Source: Patescibacteria group bacterium (lineage in GTDB: Bacteria; Patescibacteriota; Minisyncoccia; Moranbacterales; UBA1568). Taken from it: a stretch of DNA of 64,000 nucleotides. The stretch lies in assembly GCA_038078615.1 (NCBI GenBank), contig JBBTWT010000007.1, positions 1,060-65,059 of the forward strand. Reading direction: 5' to 3'. A program made the position numbers and the translations under genes. Below, piece after piece: positions 2,521 through 61,516 of this stretch (its first letter is position 1; every line of letters begins with the position of its first letter). The notes below the pieces were generated by a model, which worked only from the letters and a program-made list of their open reading frames with translations, ran no database searches and was not told the DNA's origin.

Positions 2521-2700
2521 GACGGCACAACAGGAGGGAAGAGTGAAAAACAATCGCTAACAAACTAACTGACAAACATATGTCGGACAAGAAGACGGGG
2601 CAGGGAGAAGAGGGAGCAGCAGAGTCCGTCTGCGACGCTTTGCCAGCCCGCAAAGCTGCGCTTAATGCTGCTGACGGGCGCAGCGATGCGAGTGGACGCA
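2521..2700 (+). repeat. Leader-ATG-two-hairpin cassette, copy A (homologous to 41748-41935)
   Basis: Colinear with copy B. Shared parts are ACGGCA(G)CAAC, an A/C-rich tract containing AAAAACAATCG, an ATG (2580), then a core (2631-2690) with about 55 of 65 identities by hand count. Hairpins are at 2637-2656 and 2656-2683. Confidence 0.75.
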
Positions 2701-3001: not shown

Positions 3002-3074
3002 AAGCCTCTCTGAAATGTTTTTGCGACAGGCGCTTGCCGGTAGCGGAAGCTTGGAGAAGCTCAACGTCACTCAT

Positions 3075-3782
3075 ATGATCATCAGCGGCATACAAAAATT
3101 CACGCTGCTCGATTTCCCGGGGAAGATCGCGTGCATCCTCTTCACGGGCGGGTGCAATTATCGCTGCGGGTTCTGCCACAATCCGGAATTCGTCCTGCCG
3201 GAGGAGCTCGCCAAGCTTCGCAAGAGTTTCATTCCCGAGGAAGCGGCGCTCAATTTCCTGAAGCAGCGCCGGGGGATGCTCGACGGGGTCGTGATTTCCG
3301 GCGGCGAGCCGACGATCATGCCGGATCTGGAGAGTTTCATCGGGAAGGTGCGGAACCTGGGCTTCGCGGTGAAGCTCGATACCAACGGCAATCGTCCGGA
3401 AGTGTTGCGCTCGCTGATAGACAAAGGGTTGGTGGACTATGTGGCGATGGATTTCAAGACGAGTCTCCCCGGGTATCGTTCACTTGTGGGATCGGGTGCG
3501 GATGAGATAAAATTGCGCGAAAGCATCGAGCTGTTGAAAGAAGGGCAAGTCGATTATGAATTCCGTACCACGCTCATCCGCGAAGTGCATACGTCTGCGG
3601 TTCTCGAGATGATGCGTGACACTCTGGCTGGAGCGAAGCGCCTGTATCTCCAGACATTCCGCAGCGGTATCACGCTTGACTCCGCGTTTAAGGATTTTCA
3701 CAGTTTCGATACCGGTGAGACGCGGGAAATAGCGAAATTGTTTTCAGAAAACGTGGAGGAGGTACATATACGCGAAGGGTAG
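3075..3782 (+). CDS. nrdG: Anaerobic ribonucleotide reductase activating protein (radical SAM)
   Basis: GGCNYRCGFCHNPEF CX3CX2C motif and GVVISGGEPT. Lies directly downstream of nrdD. The start is moved to ATG 3075 (MIISGIQKFTLLDFPGK) because 2985-3074 overlaps the repeat element. Confidence 0.88.
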   Translation: MIISGIQKFTLLDFPGKIACILFTGGCNYRCGFCHNPEFVLPEELAKLRKSFIPEEAALNFLKQRRGMLDGVVISGGEPTIMPDLESFIGKVRNLGFAVKLDTNGNRPEVLRSLIDKGLVDYVAMDFKTSLPGYRSLVGSGADEIKLRESIELLKEGQVDYEFRTTLIREVHTSAVLEMMRDTLAGAKRLYLQTFRSGITLDSAFKDFHSFDTGETREIAKLFSENVEEVHIREG

Positions 3783-5383: not shown

Positions 5384-5483
5384 ACCTGATTTTTCTTGCG
5401 TACGCGGAGAAACCTCCCCAGTCCCTCTGTACACATTTTTCCACGACCGTGGAGAAATGTGTACAAATATAAAATGACGCGTG

Positions 5484-9642: not shown

Positions 9643-11697
9643 ATGCCGGTATTCCGTCTCCAATCACCCTATCAGCCGGCTGGCGATCAGCCTCAGGCGA
9701 TCGTGTCTCTGGTGCGCGGATTGCGCGAGGGCAAGCGTTCCCAGACATTGCTCGGCGTGACCGGATCCGGCAAGACCTTCACGATGGCCAATGTCATCGC
9801 GCAGATGGATAAGCCGGCGCTCGTCATCGCGCACAACAAGACGCTCGCGGCGCAGCTCGCGCAGGAATATCAGGAATTTTTTCCCGATCACGCCGTGCAT
9901 TATTTCGTCTCGTATTACGACTACTATCAGCCGGAAGCCTATATGCCGACGACGGATACGTATATCGAGAAAGACGCGCAGATCAATGCGGAGATCGATC
10001 GTCTGCGGCACGCCTCCACGCAGTCGCTCCTGACGCGCCGCGACGTGATCATCGTCGCTTCCGTCTCGTGCATCTACGGGTTGGGCAGTCCTGCGGAATA
10101 TGAGAAGGAGAATATGCGTCTCGAGACCGGTATGCCGTGCTCGCGGACGGAGCTCCTCCACCGGCTCGTATCCATCTTCTTCGAGCGTACCAATGCCGAT
10201 CTGTCTCCCGGGCAATTCCGGAGCATCGGCAACCGCATCGAGATCATGCCGATCTCGGAGAAATTCATCTACCTGCTGGAAATTATCGGCGGCCGACTGG
10301 GGAGCATCACGAAGATCGATCCGGTATCGCAGAAGATCCTCGATACTCCGACGACTATCTTTCTTTTTCCGACGAAGCACTTCATCACGGACAAGGATCA
10401 GAAAGATTTCGCGATACAGTCCATCCGTCTCGAGCTCGCAGCACGATTGCAGGAGCTCGAGGCCGAGGGGAAAATTCTCGAGGTGGAGCGGCTCAAGCGG
10501 CGCACGAATTATGACCTGGCGATGATGCAGGAGATCGGCTATTGCAGCGGCATCGAGAACTATTCACGCCATCTGTCCGGCAAGGAGCCTGGCGAGCCGC
10601 CGGAGACGCTGCTCTCATATTTCCCCCGCCGTCGTAAAAGCTCTGGCGGGCAGGCGCACACTGATGTTTGGGAGCCTGATTTTCTAACAATTATAGATGA
10701 GTCGCACGTGACTTTGCCGCAGCTCCGCGGGATGTACGCCGGCGATCAGGCGCGCAAGAAAACGCTCGTCGAGTACGGCTTCCGCCTGCCCTCCGCGCTC
10801 GATAACCGGCCGCTCCGCTCCGAGGAATTCATGGAGCGGGTAGGACAGATGGTGTTCACGTCCGCGACGCCGGCGGACTATGAACGCGAGACAAGCGGGC
10901 AGATCGTGGAACAGGTGATCCGTCCGACCGGTCTCATCGACCCGGAAGTGGCGGTGCTGCCGATTCATGAGACAAAAGAGTATCCTGGACAAATTCAGGA
11001 TTTTATCGCGCAGACTGAAGAAGAGGTGAAAAAAGGCGGGCGCGTGATCGCGACGACCTTGACAAAAAAGATGGCGGAGGACTTGAGTACGTATCTGAAA
11101 GAAAAGAACATCAAGTCCGAATACCTGCACAGCGATATCAAGACCATCGATCGCATCAAGATCCTGACCCGGTTCCGCAAGGGAGAGTTCGATTGTCTGG
11201 TGGGAGTGAATCTGCTCCGTGAGGGACTCGATCTTCCCGAGGTATCGTTCATCGGCATTCTCGATGCGGACAAGGAGGGATTTCTCCGATCGGAGACTTC
11301 TCTCATCCAGATCATCGGCCGGGCAGCGCGCAATGTGTCCGGCCGCGTCGTCTTGTATGCCGAACGCATTACCGGATCAATGGAGTATGCTCTCAGCGAG
11401 ACGAATCGGCGCAGGAAGCTCCAGATGGCGCACAATAAGCTGCACGGCATCACGCCGGCTACGATCAAGAAGACGATCCACGACATCACGGAAGCCTTGG
11501 AAAGCGAGCATGACAAGGCGGTGCGCGCCAACATCGGCCTGGACCGGGAGATATTCGCCAAGAACCCCGAGAAGCTCATCAGGCTGAAGGAAAAAGAGAT
11601 GCGGGAAGCGGTGAAGGCGCTGGACTTTGAAACGGCGGCGATCCTCCGCGACGAACTCGCCATACTGAGGGGAAAAACGGACAAGATGTTGGGATGA
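9643..11697 (+). CDS. uvrB: Excinuclease ABC subunit B
   Basis: GVTGSGKTFTMA, DESHVTLPQ, YGFRLPSALDNRPL, LREGLDLPEVS and the C-terminal UVR motif. Carries a 16-aa insertion at 10627-10674. Confidence 0.95.
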   Translation: MPVFRLQSPYQPAGDQPQAIVSLVRGLREGKRSQTLLGVTGSGKTFTMANVIAQMDKPALVIAHNKTLAAQLAQEYQEFFPDHAVHYFVSYYDYYQPEAYMPTTDTYIEKDAQINAEIDRLRHASTQSLLTRRDVIIVASVSCIYGLGSPAEYEKENMRLETGMPCSRTELLHRLVSIFFERTNADLSPGQFRSIGNRIEIMPISEKFIYLLEIIGGRLGSITKIDPVSQKILDTPTTIFLFPTKHFITDKDQKDFAIQSIRLELAARLQELEAEGKILEVERLKRRTNYDLAMMQEIGYCSGIENYSRHLSGKEPGEPPETLLSYFPRRRKSSGGQAHTDVWEPDFLTIIDESHVTLPQLRGMYAGDQARKKTLVEYGFRLPSALDNRPLRSEEFMERVGQMVFTSATPADYERETSGQIVEQVIRPTGLIDPEVAVLPIHETKEYPGQIQDFIAQTEEEVKKGGRVIATTLTKKMAEDLSTYLKEKNIKSEYLHSDIKTIDRIKILTRFRKGEFDCLVGVNLLREGLDLPEVSFIGILDADKEGFLRSETSLIQIIGRAARNVSGRVVLYAERITGSMEYALSETNRRRKLQMAHNKLHGITPATIKKTIHDITEALESEHDKAVRANIGLDREIFAKNPEKLIRLKEKEMREAVKALDFETAAILRDELAILRGKTDKMLG

Positions 11698-16717: not shown

Positions 16718-19318
<2,601 letters not shown>

Positions 19319-20711: not shown

Positions 20712-22157
20712 ATGGAGAAACTGTGGGAGAAAATATACACGCTTGAAGCGTTTCAGAAGAAAAACGCGTTGCCGGAAGCGCCGGGAGCGTATTTTTTCCT
20801 GGACGCGGGGAAAGAGTTGCTCTATATCGGCAAGGCGACCTCGCTTCGCGATCGGGTGAAGAGCTATTTTTCGCGCGACATCGCCCTCTCTCGCGGTCCG
20901 AAAATAATGCGGATGCTCGAACAGGCGCGTTTCATCGCGTATCGGCAGACGGACTCCGTTCTCGAGGCGCTGATCCTGGAATCCAGACTGATAAAAGAAC
21001 ATCAGCCTCCATACAACACTGATGCCAAAGACGACAAGAGCTACAACCATATCGCCATCACGCAAGAAAAATTTCCGCGCGTGCTCATCGTGCGCGGCCG
21101 CGACCTCGTAAACCGACAACCGACAATTTACCCTGTGAAATCCAGCATAGCTGGTCCGCCGAAGGCGGAATTTCATAGGGCAAGCAACCGACAACAAAAA
21201 ACAAGATACAAATACATATTCGGACCGTTTCCGCACGGTATGCAGCTGCGCGAGGCGCTCAAGATCATCCGCAAGCTGTTCCCCTTCCGGGACAAATGTT
21301 TACCCGCCGAAGTCTTGACGAAGGAGGGCATGCCATCAAAAAAAAGAACAGAGCTGAAGCCGTGTTTCAACAGGCAGATCGGCTTGTGTCCCGGAGTATG
21401 CACCGGCGAGATTTCCGCACGAGAGTACGGACGCATTATCAATCACATCCGCCTGTTCTTCGAAGGGCGCAAGAGCGTGCTTGTCAGAAAGCTGGAACGC
21501 GAGATGAAGACGGCGGCGAAACAGCTGGCATTCGAGCGGGCGAGCGAGATCAAGAAGACATTGTTCGGGCTGCGGCATATCCAGGATATGGCGCTGGTGA
21601 AGGACGACCAGCAGTTAACAGTGAACAGTCAACAAAAAACAATAAGGATCGAAGCTTATGATGTCGCGCATCTGGGGGGAGACGCGAGCGTGGGAGTGAT
21701 GGTCGTTTTGAGCAATGGCCAAGCAGACAAAGAATCTTATAGAAAATTCATTCTGCGCGGCGGACACAACGGCAATGACCTGACTGCGCTCCAAGAGATC
21801 CTGGCGCGCCGTCTGAAACATACCCCGCCCGCAACGTTTCGCAAGCGAAGCGCAGCGATTCGGGCAGGCGAGTGGCCGCTGCCGGATATCATCGTGGTGG
21901 ATGGCGGAGAGCTTCAAGTGAGGATGGCCCAGCAAGCCATCCTCAACTTAGCGGTTTCACCGCTAAGTAAACTGCGTGGTGGAATTTCGGTCGTGGGCGT
22001 GGTGAAGAATGCCAAGCATCAGCCCGAGCGCCTCATCGGACCAGAGACGCTGACGAAGCGTTTCAAAAAAGAAATCCTGCTCGCCAATAGCGAAGCGCAT
22101 CGTTTCGCCATCACCTTCCACCGCAAGCGCCGAGGAAAGGAGTTTCTGAAGATGTAG
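20712..22157 (+). CDS. uvrC: Excinuclease ABC subunit C, short form
   Basis: GIY-YIG (GAYFFLDAGKELLYIGKATSLRDRVKSYF ... LESRLIKEHQPPYN), UVR domain (LEREMKTAAKQLAFERASEIKK) and RNase-H-like nuclease (IEAYDVAHLGG). It ends at FHRKRRGKEFLKM with no (HhH)2 domain. In-frame insertion at 21108-21212. Confidence 0.9.
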   Translation: MEKLWEKIYTLEAFQKKNALPEAPGAYFFLDAGKELLYIGKATSLRDRVKSYFSRDIALSRGPKIMRMLEQARFIAYRQTDSVLEALILESRLIKEHQPPYNTDAKDDKSYNHIAITQEKFPRVLIVRGRDLVNRQPTIYPVKSSIAGPPKAEFHRASNRQQKTRYKYIFGPFPHGMQLREALKIIRKLFPFRDKCLPAEVLTKEGMPSKKRTELKPCFNRQIGLCPGVCTGEISAREYGRIINHIRLFFEGRKSVLVRKLEREMKTAAKQLAFERASEIKKTLFGLRHIQDMALVKDDQQLTVNSQQKTIRIEAYDVAHLGGDASVGVMVVLSNGQADKESYRKFILRGGHNGNDLTALQEILARRLKHTPPATFRKRSAAIRAGEWPLPDIIVVDGGELQVRMAQQAILNLAVSPLSKLRGGISVVGVVKNAKHQPERLIGPETLTKRFKKEILLANSEAHRFAITFHRKRRGKEFLKM

Positions 22158-22245: not shown

Positions 22246-25044
22246 ATGCCAGAGAAAAAGCCGATGATCGAGATTCGCGGCGCGCGGGTCAACAACCTGA
22301 AGAACGTGGACGTCGATATCCCTCGTGATGCTTTGGTGGTGGTGACCGGCTTGTCCGGTTCGGGCAAATCCTCATTAGCTTTCGATACTCTTTTCGCGGA
22401 AGCGAATCGGCGCTATGTCGAGTCGCTTTCTTCGTATGCGCGCAATTTTCTCGACGGATTCGACAAGCCGGACGTCGACGCGATCCACAACCTTTCGCCC
22501 GCCATCTCCATCGACCAGAAGAGCGTGTCGAGGAGCCCGCGTTCGACGGTCGGGACGATGACGGAGATCTATGATTACCTGCGTATCCTGTTCGCCAAGC
22601 TCGGGATTCCGCATTGTCCATCGTGCGGCAAGCGTCTCACAAGAAAGAGCGTGCGCGAGATACTCGAAGAGCTCCTCCTCCTGCCCGACAAGACGCCGCT
22701 CGCATTCATCGCGTATGGCAAGGCGCTCGCCGACAAGACCGAACGCGAGGCGCTCTCACTCATCAATGCCTGGGGATACGTACGGGTCCTGTTTCACGGG
22801 GAGCTCTCGCCGATCGCCGAAGCGATAGGACGCGCGTCCGCGACGGAAATCTCGGATATCGGCGTGGTCGTCGACCGTCTCGAGATCGACCTGTCCCGTC
22901 CCGACAAGGAGCGTATCCTCGATTCGCTCCAGACCGCGTTCCGCGTCGGCCAGGGGACGCTCACGCTCCGCATCAATGGTACCGGTGAAGAACGTATCTA
23001 CAACGAGGAATACCGCTGTGAAGAATGCCATATCGGGCTGCCGGAGTTCACGCCGAGCTGCTTTTCCTTCAACAGTCCCGAGGGCGCGTGCGAGAAGTGC
23101 GCGGGCCTTGGCGTGACGCTCGAATTCGATCCGGAACTCGTCATCCCCAACAAGAACCTGTCGCTCGCCGAAGGGGCGATCCGTCCGTGGAGCAAGATGA
23201 ACAGCGACCGCCACAGCGGCAACGGGCCGATGCAGTGGCTGCGCGACGCGAGCCGGCGGCACAAATTCTCGCTCGATATTCCGGTGAAGAAGCTCGCCGG
23301 TAAGCATTTCTCCCTCATACTGCACGGGGAAGGCGGCACGGAGCAGGATGCCTTTCCCGGCATCATCGCGCTTCTGGAGAAGAAATACCGCGAGACGAAA
23401 TCGGATCATCTGCGTACGGACATCGAGGCGTATATGCTGACCAAGCTCTGCCCTCTCTGCGAGGGGAAGCGCCTGAAGGCGGCATCGCTCGCCGTGAAGA
23501 TAGAGGGACTTTCTATCGATGATCTCGTGAAGCAGAGCGTCGATATGTTCCTGGAGAGGATGAAGCCGCTGCGGGAAAAATGCCTGAAGACGGGCGAGAA
23601 GAAGATGATCGATCCCTTGTTCCGCGAGATGGAGATGCGGCTCTCCGCCGTGGAAAAAGTGGGACTCGGATATCTCGAGCTCTCGCGCGGCGCCGATACG
23701 CTGTCCGGAGGAGAGGCGCAGCGTATCCGCCTGTCAGTGCAGATGAAATCTGGGCTTTCCGGCATCATCTATGTCCTCGACGAGCCGTCGATCGGGCTGC
23801 ACAGCCGCGATACGGAACGCCTGATCAACGCGCTCGAGGATCTGCGGAAAGCGAACAATTCTCTCGTGATCGTCGAGCATGACGTGGCGATCATGCGCCG
23901 GGCGGACTATATCATCGATCTGGGTCCGGGCGCCGGCAGCGAGGGCGGCGAGATCATCTTCGCGGGCACGCCGGACAAGCTGATGCGCTCGAAGCTCCTG
24001 ACCGGCGAATACCTCTCCGGCAAACGCAGCATATCCGAGAAGAAGAAGGCGCGTCGTCTGAGCGAAGAGGCGATCACTGTTTTCGGCGCGACGGAACACA
24101 ATCTGAAGAATGTCGACGTGAAGATCCCGCTCGGGATGCTCGTGGCGGTTTCCGGCGTCTCGGGATCGGGCAAATCGAGCCTGGTGCATGACATCCTGTC
24201 CCGGGCGCTGTCGAAATATTTCTATCATGCCAAGGCCGAGCCGGGCGCGCACAGGAAGATCGAGGGGATCTCGAATATAGACAAGGTGATCGCCGTGACG
24301 CAGGATCCGATCGGACGGACGCCGCGTTCGAACGCGGCGACGTATACCGGCATCTTCAGCCTGATCCGCGACCTGTTCGCGGCGACGACGGAAGCCGAGC
24401 GCGAGAAATATTCCGCCAGTCATTTCAGCTTCAATATGCGCGGCGGCCGCTGCGAGGCATGCCAGGGCGGCGGATTGAAGAAGATCGAGATGTATCTCCT
24501 GCCGGATGTCTACGTACCGTGCGAAGTCTGTCAGGGGACGAGATACAACGCGAAGACGCTCTCGATCGAATATCGCGGAATGAATATCGCGGCCGTGCTC
24601 CGCATGACGGTCACGGAAGCGCGCCGCTTCTTCCTGGATCAGCCGATGATCGAAGAGAAGCTGCGCGTGCTCGAGGAAGTCGGTCTCGGATATCTGGTAC
24701 TCGGACAGAGCGCGACCAACCTCTCCGGAGGAGAGGCGCAGCGTATCAAGCTCGCGACAGAACTGGCACGAAAATCGACCGGCAAGACGCTCTATATCCT
24801 CGACGAGCCGACGATCGGCCTGCATTTCGAGGATGTGCGGCGCCTGCTCGAGGTGCTCGAAGCGCTGACGGACAAAGGCAACAGCGTGCTCGTCGTGGAG
24901 CACAATCTCGATGTCATCCGCTCGGCGGATTGGGTGCTGGAGCTCGGTCCGGACGGCGGCGCCAAGGGCGGGGAGCTCATCTTCTCCGGACCGCCGGACA
25001 AATTGAAAAACTGCAAGCGTTCATTCACGGCGAAATATCTATAA
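22246..25044 (+). CDS. uvrA: Excinuclease ABC subunit A (full-length type)
   Basis: [20 protein letters not shown] twice, [11 protein letters not shown], Zn modules, and an insertion-domain-length segment between CAGLG and CPLCEGKRL. Confidence 0.95.
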
Positions 25045-25084
25045 TTTTTAAAAGAGGGTTTTTTGTCTTAGAATCGAAAGCATC

Positions 25085-25149
25085 CCGGAAGTTTTCAGAT
25101 GAACCGTGCCGAAGAGGTTTCGCCACATGGTTCCCTAAAAAACTTCCGG
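25085..25149. repeat. Rod-like hairpin element, short copy (core shared with 47539-47655)
   Basis: CCGGAAGTTTT ... AAAACTTCCGG 11-bp outer stem. The inner 39-40 nt AGATGAACCGTGCCGAAGAGGTTTCGCCACATGGTTCCCT differs at 2 positions from 47561-47600. Confidence 0.85.
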
Positions 25150-27401: not shown

Positions 27402-28772
27402 GTGTTCGCTACAAGCTACAGGCTACAAGCTACAGGCTACAGGGGATTCACGCTGATCGAAGCGCTGGTTTTGCTGTTTATTTTCGCCGTGGTGTCCATG
27501 ACTTTCCTCGAGACGTACGCGACCGGAACGCGCCTCATCATAGAGTCGAAAAACCGGCTCGGAGCGACAGCGCTTGCCAATCAGAAGATGGAGATCATCC
27601 GCAGCATCGACTACGATATTATCGGTACGACGACCGGTATCCCGGCAGGAGATATTCTCGAGTATGAAACAATCAGCGTCAACACGGTGAAGTATCGGGT
27701 GCATACGTTCGTTCAGTATGCCGATGATATTTTTGACGGACAGCTGGGGGGCAATCCGACCGATACGATTCCCAACGATTACAAACGCGTCAAAATTTCC
27801 GTTTCGTGGGGTGCTCTGGGAACGGATCAGACGGTTTCTTTGTTTACGAATATCGCTCCCGATGGCGTGGAAACTTCGGCAGGCGGCGGCGTGCTCTCGA
27901 TCAATATCCTGGATTCCGCCGGTATGGGAATGTCGGGCGCCTCGGTGCATATCGTGAATAGCGCTGCCGGTGTCGACGTAACGACGCAAACCGACGCGAC
28001 CGGCAATATCACTTTGCCGGGTACGCCGGCAGGAACGCAGAATTATGCATTGACCGTTTCGAAGGGCGGTCATTACGGAGTTATGACGTATCCGCCGTAT
28101 CCGACGTCTCCGTACAATCCGATCGATGAACACGCGTCGGTAGCGGCAGGGGTTTTGAATCAGAAGTCGATGGTTATGGATCAGTATGCCGATATCACGG
28201 TGCGGTCGAAAGACCCGTTCGGAACGGATGTACCGAACATCGCTTTCAATATGACGGGTGGGAAAATTCTTGGCACGGATCCGGTAACACTGGCGTCGAT
28301 CTATGAATACAATCAGAATCTGAGCACGAGTGCTTCCGGCGTCAAGGACATCGCGGATCAGAGTTACGGCCAGTATACGCTTGCGGAATCCGATGCGCGT
28401 TATCAGTTGCACAAGCTGAGTCCGGAAGGCGCGACGAAAGATATATTCGACGCTCTGGCGGGGCAGGCGACAGCGGTGGATATGGTACTCCTGGATACTC
28501 AGATCGGTTCGGTGAAGGTTGTGGTCATCAATGATGCCGATGGCAGTCCTATCGCGGGGGCGACTGTGCGCCTTACGAACACATCGCTCGGGTACGACGC
28601 GACCCAGTTGTCCGATCAGTACGGGTTCGCGTATTTTCCGACCGCGCTTCCGGGACTCGTGGCCGGAACGTATAATCTCGCGGTGAGCGCGACTGGTTTT
28701 CAAAGTGATACTGATACGGCGAATGTGAACAATGCTCTGATCACGGAAACCATTGATTTGATTCCAAACTGA
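27402..28772 (+). CDS. Large prepilin-type protein with CarboxypepD_reg-like beta-sandwich repeats
   Basis: Class III signal ...GYRG/FTLIEALVLLFIFAVV (G-F-T-L-I-E). Two segments resemble G.V.V....G.P..GA.V.L......TD..G...F. GTG start directly after the pilC stop. Confidence 0.75.
   Translation: MFATSYRLQATGYRGFTLIEALVLLFIFAVVSMTFLETYATGTRLIIESKNRLGATALANQKMEIIRSIDYDIIGTTTGIPAGDILEYETISVNTVKYRVHTFVQYADDIFDGQLGGNPTDTIPNDYKRVKISVSWGALGTDQTVSLFTNIAPDGVETSAGGGVLSINILDSAGMGMSGASVHIVNSAAGVDVTTQTDATGNITLPGTPAGTQNYALTVSKGGHYGVMTYPPYPTSPYNPIDEHASVAAGVLNQKSMVMDQYADITVRSKDPFGTDVPNIAFNMTGGKILGTDPVTLASIYEYNQNLSTSASGVKDIADQSYGQYTLAESDARYQLHKLSPEGATKDIFDALAGQATAVDMVLLDTQIGSVKVVVINDADGSPIAGATVRLTNTSLGYDATQLSDQYGFAYFPTALPGLVAGTYNLAVSATGFQSDTDTANVNNALITETIDLIPN
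27408..27442 (+). repeat. Heptanucleotide tandem repeat (GCTACAR)x5 inside the prepilin leader coding region
   Basis: GCTACAA GCTACAG GCTACAA GCTACAG GCTACAG, read directly. Confidence 0.95.
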
Positions 28773-36247: not shown

Positions 36248-36283
36248 ACCTTACTTTTTATGCAATTGCATAAAAAGTAAGGT
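36248..36283. repeat. Perfect AT-rich palindrome, copy 1 of 2
   Basis: ac-CTTACTTTTTATGCAATTGCATAAAAAGTAAG-gt. The identical 32-nt core recurs at 61482-61513. Confidence 0.95.
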
Positions 36284-41747: not shown

Positions 41748-41935
41748 ACGGCAGCAACCGCCGCCAGATCGACAAAAACAAAAACAAAAAACAATCGTAT
41801 GCAGGAACGACGCCATCACGTCAGAATGATGTCTCCCGGGGGACACAGGCACGGTCTCGAGCCCGTTCGCAACGCTTTGCCAGCCCGAAAAGCTACGCTT
41901 AACGTTGCTGGCGGGCGTAGCAATGCGGGCAGGCT
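41748..41935 (+). repeat. Leader-ATG-two-hairpin cassette, copy B (homologous to 2521-2700)
   Basis: ACGGCAGCAAC, (ACAAAA)n...AAAAACAATCG, ATG 41799, then hairpins 41874-41893 and 41893-41920. Compensatory differences relative to copy A. Confidence 0.75.
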
Positions 41936-47534: not shown

Positions 47535-47538
47535 TTAT

Positions 47539-47655
47539 AGAAAAGATTTCAAAAGTTTTTAGATGAACCGCGCCGAAGCGGTTTCGCCACATGGTTCCCT
47601 GCCCGAAGTGCTACATCGTGGCAGGCGGGCCTAAAAAACTTTTGAAATCTTTTCT
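47539..47655. repeat. Rod-like hairpin (MITE-like) element, long copy
   Basis: 23/24-bp terminal inverted repeats: AGAAAAGATTTCAAAAGTTTTTAG with CTAAAAAACTTTTGAAATCTTTTCT. The inner core is shared with 25098-25136. Carries an extra hairpin CTGCC..GGCAG. Confidence 0.9.
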
Positions 47656-47690: not shown

Positions 47691-48668
47691 ATGAAACTAT
47701 TAGTTACAGGCGGAGCCGGTTTCATCGGTTCCAACTTCATACATCATATCCTTACGGCATATCCGGAATATCAGGTGACCAATCTGGACGCCTTGACGTA
47801 CGCGGGGAATCTGGAAAATCTGAAAATATGGGAACATGATGCGCGCCACCGTTTCGTGAAGGGCGGCGTGACAGACAAGGAGCTCGTGGATGGTCTCGTC
47901 GCGGCGTGCGATATCGTGGTGCATTTCGCGGCGGAGTCCCACGTAGATCGCTCGATTATGGATCCGAGCGCTTTCGTGGATACCAATATCAGAGGAACGT
48001 ACGTGTTGCTTGAAGCGGCGCGCAAACACGGCAGGCGTTTCCATCATATCTCGACGGACGAGGTATTCGGTGCGCTCGGTCCGGATGATGCACCGTTTGA
48101 CGAGGAGACAGCGTATGACCCGCGTAGTCCCTACAGCGCGTCGAAAGCGGCGTCGGACCATCTGGCGCGCGCGTATTTCCATACCTATGGTCTGCCGGTC
48201 ACGATTTCCAACTGCTCCAACAATTATGGGCCATACCATCTGCCGGAGAAACTGATTCCGCTTGCAATCACGAATCTTATCGAAGGAAAGAAAGTGCCGG
48301 TCTATGGCGATGGTCTGCAGGTGCGTGACTGGCTCTACGTTGAGGATCATTGTAGGGCGATCGATCTCATCATCCATCAGGGGCAACTCGGCGAGACCTA
48401 CTGCGTCGGCGGGAACGGTGAGCGGGAGAATACCTGGATCGTGAAAAAACTGCTGGCAATGCTCGGCAAAGATGAGAGAATGATCGAATATGTGAAGGAT
48501 CGCCCCGGCCACGACCGTCGCTATGCCATCAATTTTTCAAAAATTCAGCAGGAGCTCGGCTGGCAGCCAACCGTGACTTTGGAAGAGGGTTTGCAAAAAA
48601 CGGTGAAGTGGTTCCAAGACAACAAATCCTGGTGGAAGAATGCCCGCCAGAAACGCTATCACGCCTAG
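47691..48668 (+). CDS. rfbB: dTDP-glucose 4,6-dehydratase
   Basis: VTGGAGFIGSNF, YSASKAASDHL, and the NYGPYHLPEKLIP motif. Confidence 0.95.
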   Translation: MKLLVTGGAGFIGSNFIHHILTAYPEYQVTNLDALTYAGNLENLKIWEHDARHRFVKGGVTDKELVDGLVAACDIVVHFAAESHVDRSIMDPSAFVDTNIRGTYVLLEAARKHGRRFHHISTDEVFGALGPDDAPFDEETAYDPRSPYSASKAASDHLARAYFHTYGLPVTISNCSNNYGPYHLPEKLIPLAITNLIEGKKVPVYGDGLQVRDWLYVEDHCRAIDLIIHQGQLGETYCVGGNGERENTWIVKKLLAMLGKDERMIEYVKDRPGHDRRYAINFSKIQQELGWQPTVTLEEGLQKTVKWFQDNKSWWKNARQKRYHA

Positions 48669-48711
48669 CGGGATTGCGGGCTGGTGAAATCCGGAGCGTA
48701 CCAGCAGTATT

Positions 48712-50080: not shown

Positions 50081-50149
50081 CATTCAGCGCGATGTTCTTC
50101 AGGAGGACGTTTGTGGGATGATCATCGTGTATATTGCTACATATCTACA

Positions 50150-50187
50150 CCTACACATCTATGTGCGACCGCACAGAGATGTGTAGG
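50150..50187. repeat. Palindromic repeat, copy 2 of 3
   Basis: CCTACACATCT-at-GTGCG-ac-CGCAC-ag-AGATGTGTAGG, ending 10 nt upstream of ATG 50198. Confidence 0.9.
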
Positions 50188-50197
50188 TCACAAAGGC

Positions 50198-50806: not shown

Positions 50807-50827
50807 AAATATATGTTATTCTTGTGC

Positions 50828-50863
50828 CTACACATCTATGTGCGGTCGCATATAGATGTGTAG
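50828..50863. repeat. Palindromic repeat, copy 3 of 3
   Basis: CTACACATCTATGTGCGGTCGCATATAGATGTGTAG, starting 22 nt after the stop of the PaaX-like gene. Confidence 0.9.
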
Positions 50864-50967
50864 ATGCTGATACCGATGAGTGAGAAGATCGGCAGAATGT
50901 TCGGAGCAAGTGGGAGAGAAGTATGATATCTTGATATTGCGAAATATTTCCCAGCAGCTTCTTGTTT

Positions 50968-61478: not shown

Positions 61479-61516
61479 AGTCTTACTTTTTATGCAATTG
61501 CATAAAAAGTAAGACT
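61479..61516. repeat. Perfect AT-rich palindrome, copy 2 of 2
   Basis: agt-CTTACTTTTTATGCAATTGCATAAAAAGTAAG-act. The flanks differ from copy 1 but are still self-complementary. Confidence 0.95.

Follow-up and report, generated by a model that had tools for sequence, protein, structure and literature searches.

Is a short run of extra residues in a conserved DNA repair protein the remnant of a palindromic repeat, or is it a protein loop that has simply grown? The question is raised by the uvrB gene (excinuclease ABC subunit B) in the stretch of DNA studied here, a 64,000-nucleotide (nt) window from an uncultured groundwater Moranbacteria (Patescibacteria) bacterium; all positions are those of the window. 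An initial annotation had recognized an in-frame insertion of 16 amino acids in UvrB and had proposed that it was a deleted version of a repeat, hereafter called the cassette, that is found elsewhere in the window. We report that the insertion comprises about 10 codons and is shared by only one of the relatives scored, and that it lies on a tract of uvrB whose history differs from that of the rest of the gene. We lean toward the view that it is a 10-residue expansion of a permissive surface loop, that is, an ordinary small insertion of unidentifiable source that was later moved by recombination. An origin from the cassette is conceivable, but we regard it as doubtful.

The product of the gene is a 100% match to a protein (P0001) of a metagenome-assembled genome listed at NCBI as "Patescibacteria group bacterium," and its nearest UvrB relatives bear Moranbacteria or Moraniibacteriota annotation. 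Its precomputed Pfam domains are UvrB_inter, UvrB_3rd, Helicase_C, UvrB, and UVR, and its best match among solved UvrB structures (9gy7_E, E = 3.6e-233) spans residues 3–678. Judged by this domain set, by helicase motif II (DESH), and by the full-length similarity to solved UvrBs, the protein can be assigned to UvrB.

The insertion had been placed at 10627–10674, and both the coordinates and the sequence given for it were correct: the segment reads CGC CGT CGT AAA AGC TCT GGC GGG CAG GCG CAC ACT GAT GTT TGG GAG and encodes RRRKSSGGQAHTDVWE, between YFP and PDFLTIIDESHVT. When the protein was aligned to the solved UvrB structures with HMMER, a gap of 16 residues appeared precisely where YFP(K) gives way to DFL, and in comparison with those proteins the figure of 16 residues holds. 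Closer relatives give a smaller figure. We read the loop site in the 120 closest UvrBs, of which 119 could be scored, and found a six-residue loop, YFP-H-T-A-D-G-K-PDF, in 115 of them; the Moranbacteria clade thus appears already to be longer at this site by six residues than canonical UvrB. In a codon alignment with the genes of contigs L005, L006, and L007, the window sequence CAC ACT GAT GTT TGG GAG CCT stands opposite CAC ACG GAT GAC GGC AAG CCT in the relatives, and each codon of HTDVWE pairs with one of the ancestral HTDDGK. HTDVWE is probably a diverged copy of the clade-wide loop. Because it aligns with that loop, the true insertion would be of about 10 codons (10627–10656), not 16, and would consist of RRRKSSGGQA, four basic residues followed by Ser and Gly.

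The distribution of the insertion is narrow. Among the 119 scored UvrBs, the sequence [R/H]RRKSSGGQA[H/R]TDVWE was present only in the window protein and in P0002, which is encoded on contig L001 and is 91% identical to the window protein. A multiple alignment had been suggested as a means of dating the insertion; it delimits RRRKSSGGQA, confined to two proteins, and sets apart from it the six residues that probably belong to the clade as a whole. A distinct variant that is longer by 12 residues, HKRRTIRTERGQTQTIEE, occurs in P0008 and P0009, and the site is empty in L005, L006, L007, and L019. With the loop segment of UvrB as its query, a word-indexed search returned two uninformative fragments only, and the census of loop variants stays at the 120 closest UvrBs. 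We also note a second difference from solved UvrBs, a six-residue insertion (HETKEY) at about residues 441–446, where VKPV------KGQI aligns with PIHETKEYPGQI; judged from the consensus PIxExxxYPGQI, it appears to be clade-wide.

How did the same insertion come to be in the window gene and in L001? At the DNA level, the window uvrB is closest to that of L005 (P0003; 89.4% identity), which lacks the insertion, and is only 84.6% identical to that of L001, which has it. Taking as informative the positions at which L001 and L005 differ, we found that the window gene is L005-like nearly throughout, except for three short L001-like tracts. The tract at about 10624–10700 (Table 1) holds the insertion, the modified loop, and three sites downstream. 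Identity over 10657–10700 is 0.886 to L001 and 0.659 to L005, whereas 10701–10800 is 96% identical to L005. From this pattern the window uvrB is a mosaic gene, and the insertion was probably moved between lineages by recombination: either homologous recombination brought it into the window background, or it was lost from the L005 lineage by that route. The insertion is not recent, because the window and L001 copies differ at six of 33 positions. Meanwhile, in a neighbor-joining tree, P0008 and P0009 fall in another clade than the window protein, among sequences without an insertion. Since the distribution of the insertion departs from the gene tree and since it lies on a recombinant tract, it is no clean vertical marker. 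Further L001-like tracts in uvrB lie at 10990–11040 and 11640–11680 (13 and 14 consecutive informative sites, respectively) and indicate that uvrB alleles of Moranbacteria have recombined repeatedly over short tracts.

The initial annotation had expected a surface loop near helicase motif II. In an AlphaFold2 model of the window UvrB, built from a 40-sequence alignment (mean predicted local distance difference test [pLDDT] score of 68.5), residues 329–344 stick out as a hairpin or loop, and the pLDDT of residues 335–340 is below 50. This low-confidence loop just precedes the strand at 348–352 (LTIID) that leads into motif II, and solved UvrBs have no residues at the position of the insertion. 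The model places a loop near motif II, as expected, and a position at the surface would follow from the general layout of the RecA fold. On that layout, the insertion probably sits where the motif II strand has its N-terminal end, on the side of RecA-like domain 1a that is turned from the ATP site, and we infer that it is most likely near-neutral, with little effect on function. It is a matter of speculation that the four basic residues might, as a flexible positive tip, make contact with DNA or with another protein that partners UvrB.

The explanation toward which we lean would run as follows. An already expanded and indel-tolerant loop would join the helix ending in ...PPETLLSYFP to the strand with motif II (LTIIDESHVT). 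RRRKSSGGQA would have arisen there, in one Moranbacteria lineage, through an ordinary small insertion, which would have been tolerated because of its probable position away from the ATP site. The insertion would then have passed between close lineages on a short homologous-recombination (gene-conversion) tract, and the loop would now be polymorphic among recombining Moranbacteria lineages. As to its source, comparison of the insertion with 200 nt on each side gave no significant similarity (p = 0.13–0.16), and, because the flanking similarity is non-significant, there is no sign of a tandem duplication.

The other source to be considered is the cassette, which is repeat family D7 of the window and which is present in multiple copies, in frame, in unrelated genes. 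Copies A and B (Table 1) share a reading frame and encode ..ALPARKA(A/T)LN(A/V)A(D/G)GRS.., and in the gene call made for the contig of this organism, copy A is part of a 92-amino-acid open reading frame (ORF) for an NrdD fragment. The cassette matches its own reverse complement (nhmmer, E = 8e-6). Copy B has a fold z-score of −2.8 on one strand and −3.2 on the other, and full copies range from −2.8 to −3.6. Its terminal arms, CCNGNNCGNAACGCTT... on the left and ...RCGATKCGGGCRGG on the right, are kept even in decayed copies. Thus, copy C, which is 45–48 nt long (nhmmer, E = 0.011–0.042) and is a 15-amino-acid insertion relative to the UvrC of L007, where it is absent, and a copy shortened to 36 nt that occupies, in L017 (about 3060–3100), the NrdD site of copy A and encodes PVRNASGNDAGG both lack the center and retain both arms. 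The precise insertion of 72 nt that is copy A, with empty sites in orthologues, marks the cassette as a genuine, in-frame-inserting palindromic element.

We also searched for the cassette outside the window. An exhaustive hidden Markov model (HMM) search with its peptide revealed one further true copy, in frame in the GT4 glycosyltransferase P0121 (L013:198–269), that is identical to copy B at 65 of 72 positions (90%). The L013 copy is 67% G+C and the remainder of its contig is 35% G+C, and the presence of a GC-rich copy in an AT-rich contig argues for horizontal spread of the cassette. A second match in that search, P0122, was a chance match to the translation of a CRISPR array. A scan of genome and metagenome contig collections with GCTTTGCCAGCCCGNAAAGCT yielded six matches, all of them due to chance and with unrelated flanks. 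A word-indexed protein search with the cassette peptide produced no candidates, though window proteins hold the peptide, the index being non-exhaustive for short queries. A search of the whole window against Rfam at the gathering threshold gave no matches, and E-value searches with copy B and the L013 copy gave noise only. As the Rfam searches gave no match, the cassette is no described RNA family, and full-text literature searches found no report of such in-frame palindromic elements in Patescibacteria. A comparison of the empty sites in NrdD, UvrC, and UvrB revealed no convincing shared target motif. Finally, a degenerate cassette-like stretch on the minus strand at 48639–48707 (CCAGCCCG ... 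CTGGCGGGC; nhmmer, E ~0.6) overlaps the stop codon of an upstream ORF; it could be a fourth cassette-like copy or could be due to chance.

Some of our observations weigh against an ordinary insertion of unidentifiable source. The AlphaFold2 model is of only moderate quality, to judge from its mean score. Both the 10-residue and the 12-residue variant begin with basic residues and contain a GQ motif (p = 0.035 at the protein level against shuffles), which could mean a common, and possibly selected, origin. The cassette inserts in frame in this very genome, even in the partner repair gene uvrC. Moreover, gapped local alignment of the 30-nt insertion with four cassette copies gave p values of 0.0003–0.014, depending on gap costs, against a null of random 30-mers of the window; given this nominal similarity, "unidentifiable" may be too pessimistic a word for the origin.

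Could the insertion, then, be a heavily decayed copy of the cassette? It would then retain a portion of the center (CG-AAAAGCT and CTGGCGGGC) together with a portion of the right arm (GCGGGCAGGCG) and would have lost the left arm and the apical hairpin. The three ordered blocks on which the proposal had been based are indeed present in copy B, as AAAAGCT, 13 nt, CTGGCGGGC, 14 nt, and AGGC. The orthologous insertion of L001 also scores nominally high against the cassette copies (p = 0.002–0.014); GCGGGCAGGC agrees with copy B in its right arm, and CGGGCAGGCG with copy C, each over 10 nt; the 9-mer CTGGCGGGC occurs four times in the window, against 0.63 expected; and shortened derivatives of the cassette do exist. 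The decay pattern of those derivatives is the opposite of that required, however, in that L017 and copy C have dropped the center and kept the arms, whereas the insertion would have kept the center and lost the left arm. Indeed, the UvrB insertion has no left arm, and its similarity to the right arm is limited to a stretch of 10–11 nt (GCGGGCAGGCG). Nor is there a hairpin: the z-score of the insertion with its flanks is −0.36 and that of its L001 orthologue is +0.70, in contrast to the values for full copies given above. Cassette profiles built from two and three copies (nhmmer --max, a program that penalizes long deletions) did not match the insertion at E <= 100 or E <= 50. The 13-nt and 14-nt internal deletions that have to be postulated would each cause a frameshift on their own, two of the three blocks of the DNA match (blocks 1 and 3) are out of the conserved frame of the cassette, and RRRKSSGGQA has RK..GG alone in common with the conserved peptide ..ALPARKAALNAAGGRSDAGG... 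Among the cassette traits looked for in the UvrB insertion, only one was clearly found, namely, in-frame insertion with an empty site in orthologues.

The statistical alignment that had been called for as a check gives nominally low p values, as we have seen. In a scan of the window with the same measure, an unrelated and better match lies at 28446–28469 (GCTCTGGCGGGGCAGGCG, encoding ALAGQA in a pilin-like ORF), with a score of 30.5 as against 27.75 for the UvrB insertion, and several other matches are nearly as good as the insertion. The comparison is also post hoc, the resemblance having been noticed first. The L001 insertion departs from the match at two of its 20 bases (AGT, CAA), and the possibly homologous insertions of L002 and L004 share these L001 bases and show no similarity to the cassette (p = 0.06–0.9). 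We considered L002 and L004 as an outgroup for polarizing these changes and rejected them as decisive, as the two types of insertion are only possibly homologous. What stands of the proposal, then, is that the cassette is real and inserts in frame and that the UvrB insertion is real; a link between the two was not demonstrated by a left arm, a hairpin, the peptide frame, or a profile match. The nominal similarity weakly suggests a cassette origin, and that the insertion is a decayed, arm-less copy of an undescribed, horizontally spreading 72-nt element of Patescibacteria genes (an NrdD fragment, an FtsL-like gene, UvrC, and a GT4 glycosyltransferase) is a possibility to which we give perhaps one chance in three or somewhat less.

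A different connection is that between the 10-residue insertion (window and L001) and the 12-residue insertion (L002 and L004), which could both descend from one older insertion that was spread patchily by recombination and that may be selected as a basic, DNA-contacting loop. The two are at the same position, and both begin [H/R][K/R]R[R/K][S/T] and end GQ[A/T][H/Q]T..E-P. Recombination among these uvrB lineages is evident. L002 is closest overall to L019, which has no insertion, yet directly upstream of its own insertion it has a run of six informative sites that are L001-like, with three more shortly downstream. Yet the nucleotide similarity of the two insertions is non-significant (p = 0.2–0.7), the L002 insertion holds an internal repeat of its own (ACTATA...ACTATA) that suggests a separate local duplication, and the two types lie in different clades of the neighbor-joining tree, each nested among insertion-free sequences. 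Because they sit in separate clades, the loop would have been enlarged at least twice beyond the clade-wide six residues, and we consider a single older insertion unlikely.

Table 1. Positions in the window of the features of uvrB and of the cassette copies
Feature	Positions	Strand	Basis or remarks
uvrB, 684 amino acids, excinuclease ABC subunit B	9643..11697	+	ORF; identical to P0001; UvrB Pfam domains
L001-like tract in uvrB, probable recombination or gene conversion	10624..10700	+	11 of 12 consecutive informative sites L001-like, one matching neither; L005-like flanks
Lineage-specific in-frame insertion, about 30 nt, RRRKSSGGQA	10627..10656	+	Absent from 115 of 119 close UvrBs; only in window and P0002/L001
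Probable diverged clade-wide loop, HTDVWE (consensus HTADGK)	10657..10674	+	Codon alignment with L005, L006, and L007
Beta-strand and helicase motif II (LTIIDESHVT), directly downstream of loop	10684..10713	+	Translation; AlphaFold2 strand 348–352; alignment to solved structures
Cassette copy A, 72 nt, N-terminal tail of small NrdD-fragment ORF, SVCDALPARKAALNAADGRSDASG	2625..2696	+	Empty sites in L018 (P0127) and L006 (P0128)
Cassette copy C, center deleted, both arms kept, in frame in uvrC, TPPATFRKRSAAIRAG	21822..21869	+	nhmmer; comparison with L007
Cassette copy B, N-terminal tail of FtsL-like ORF, PVRNALPARKATLNVAGGRSNAGR; copy with which the insertion was initially compared	41862..41933	+	Family D7; ORF

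How do the cassette and the insertion compare with known systems? The Rickettsia palindromic elements (RPEs) are about 150 bp long, integrate in frame in unrelated genes, and each encode a conserved peptide (PMC10969869). The cassette resembles them in being a multi-copy palindrome that lies in frame in unrelated genes and encodes a conserved peptide. It differs from them in being about half as long and in having a Patescibacteria host, and the likeness is one of behavior only. The UvrB insertion, in contrast, has no palindrome, no terminal arms, and no conserved peptide frame. Hence the RPEs, which had been cited as the precedent for the insertion, are a fitting precedent for the behavior of the cassette, whereas the insertion is without their hallmarks. 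[quoted passage not shown] Neither a partner transposase nor terminal inverted repeats accompanied by target-site duplication were identified for it in this analysis; the UvrB insertion cannot be assigned to this kind of element. A further class to which the insertion may be compared is that of conserved signature indels.

Such indels are lineage-specific and are found in conserved proteins. The UvrB insertion is like them in being short, in frame, probably in a surface loop, in a universal protein, restricted to a narrow lineage, and bounded by invariant flanks (YFP ... PDFLTIIDESHVT), but it is unlike them in that its distribution departs from the gene tree and in that it lies on a recombinant tract.

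Taken alone, the UvrB insertion would be a routine, lineage-specific expansion of a loop, and it carries a caution: within a 64-kb window, chance produces short, GC-rich matches when gaps are free. The more useful by-product of the analysis is the cassette, a real in-frame palindromic element with a behavior best known from the RPEs of Rickettsia. If the insertion were after all a remnant of it, then RPE-like "selfish DNA in coding genes" would reshape even core repair enzymes of bacteria of the candidate phyla radiation (CPR), and cassette copies could shrink into ordinary-looking loops. The cassette raises the question of how much of the "extra loops" of CPR proteins derives from elements of this kind.

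Finally, we note other repeats and genes of the window. Comparison of uvrC (20712–22157, 481 amino acids) with the UvrC of L007 shows, besides copy C, three further insertions in frame: KSSIAGPPKAEFHRASNRQQKTRY (24 amino acids), AEVLTKEG (eight amino acids), and PLSKLRGG (eight amino acids). Two genes for UvrA-like ABC ATPases lie at 17876–19258 and 23656–25005 (repeat families D1–D3; 932-amino-acid ORF at 22246–25044), and uvrB, uvrC, and the duplicated uvrA make up a repair-gene neighborhood in the window. A second family of palindromic repeats (CCTACACATCT.TGTGCG.CCGCACA.AGATGTGTAG; D5, I1, and I2) is present at 2466–2517, 5428–5464, 50140–50191, and 50827–50872. The copy that follows the large nrdD gene has conserved counterparts in L006 and L007, and the family has the look of an intergenic terminator or of a REP-like element. 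A perfect, AT-rich palindrome of 32 nt (CTTACTTTTTATGCAATTGCATAAAAAGTAAG; D10 and I3) is found in two identical copies 25 kb apart, at 36250–36281 and 61482–61513. Lastly, a direct repeat of 64 nt with 84% identity (D8), at 25073–25136 and 47537–47600, ends in ...GAACCG.GCCGAAG.GGTTTCGCCACATGGTTCCCT.

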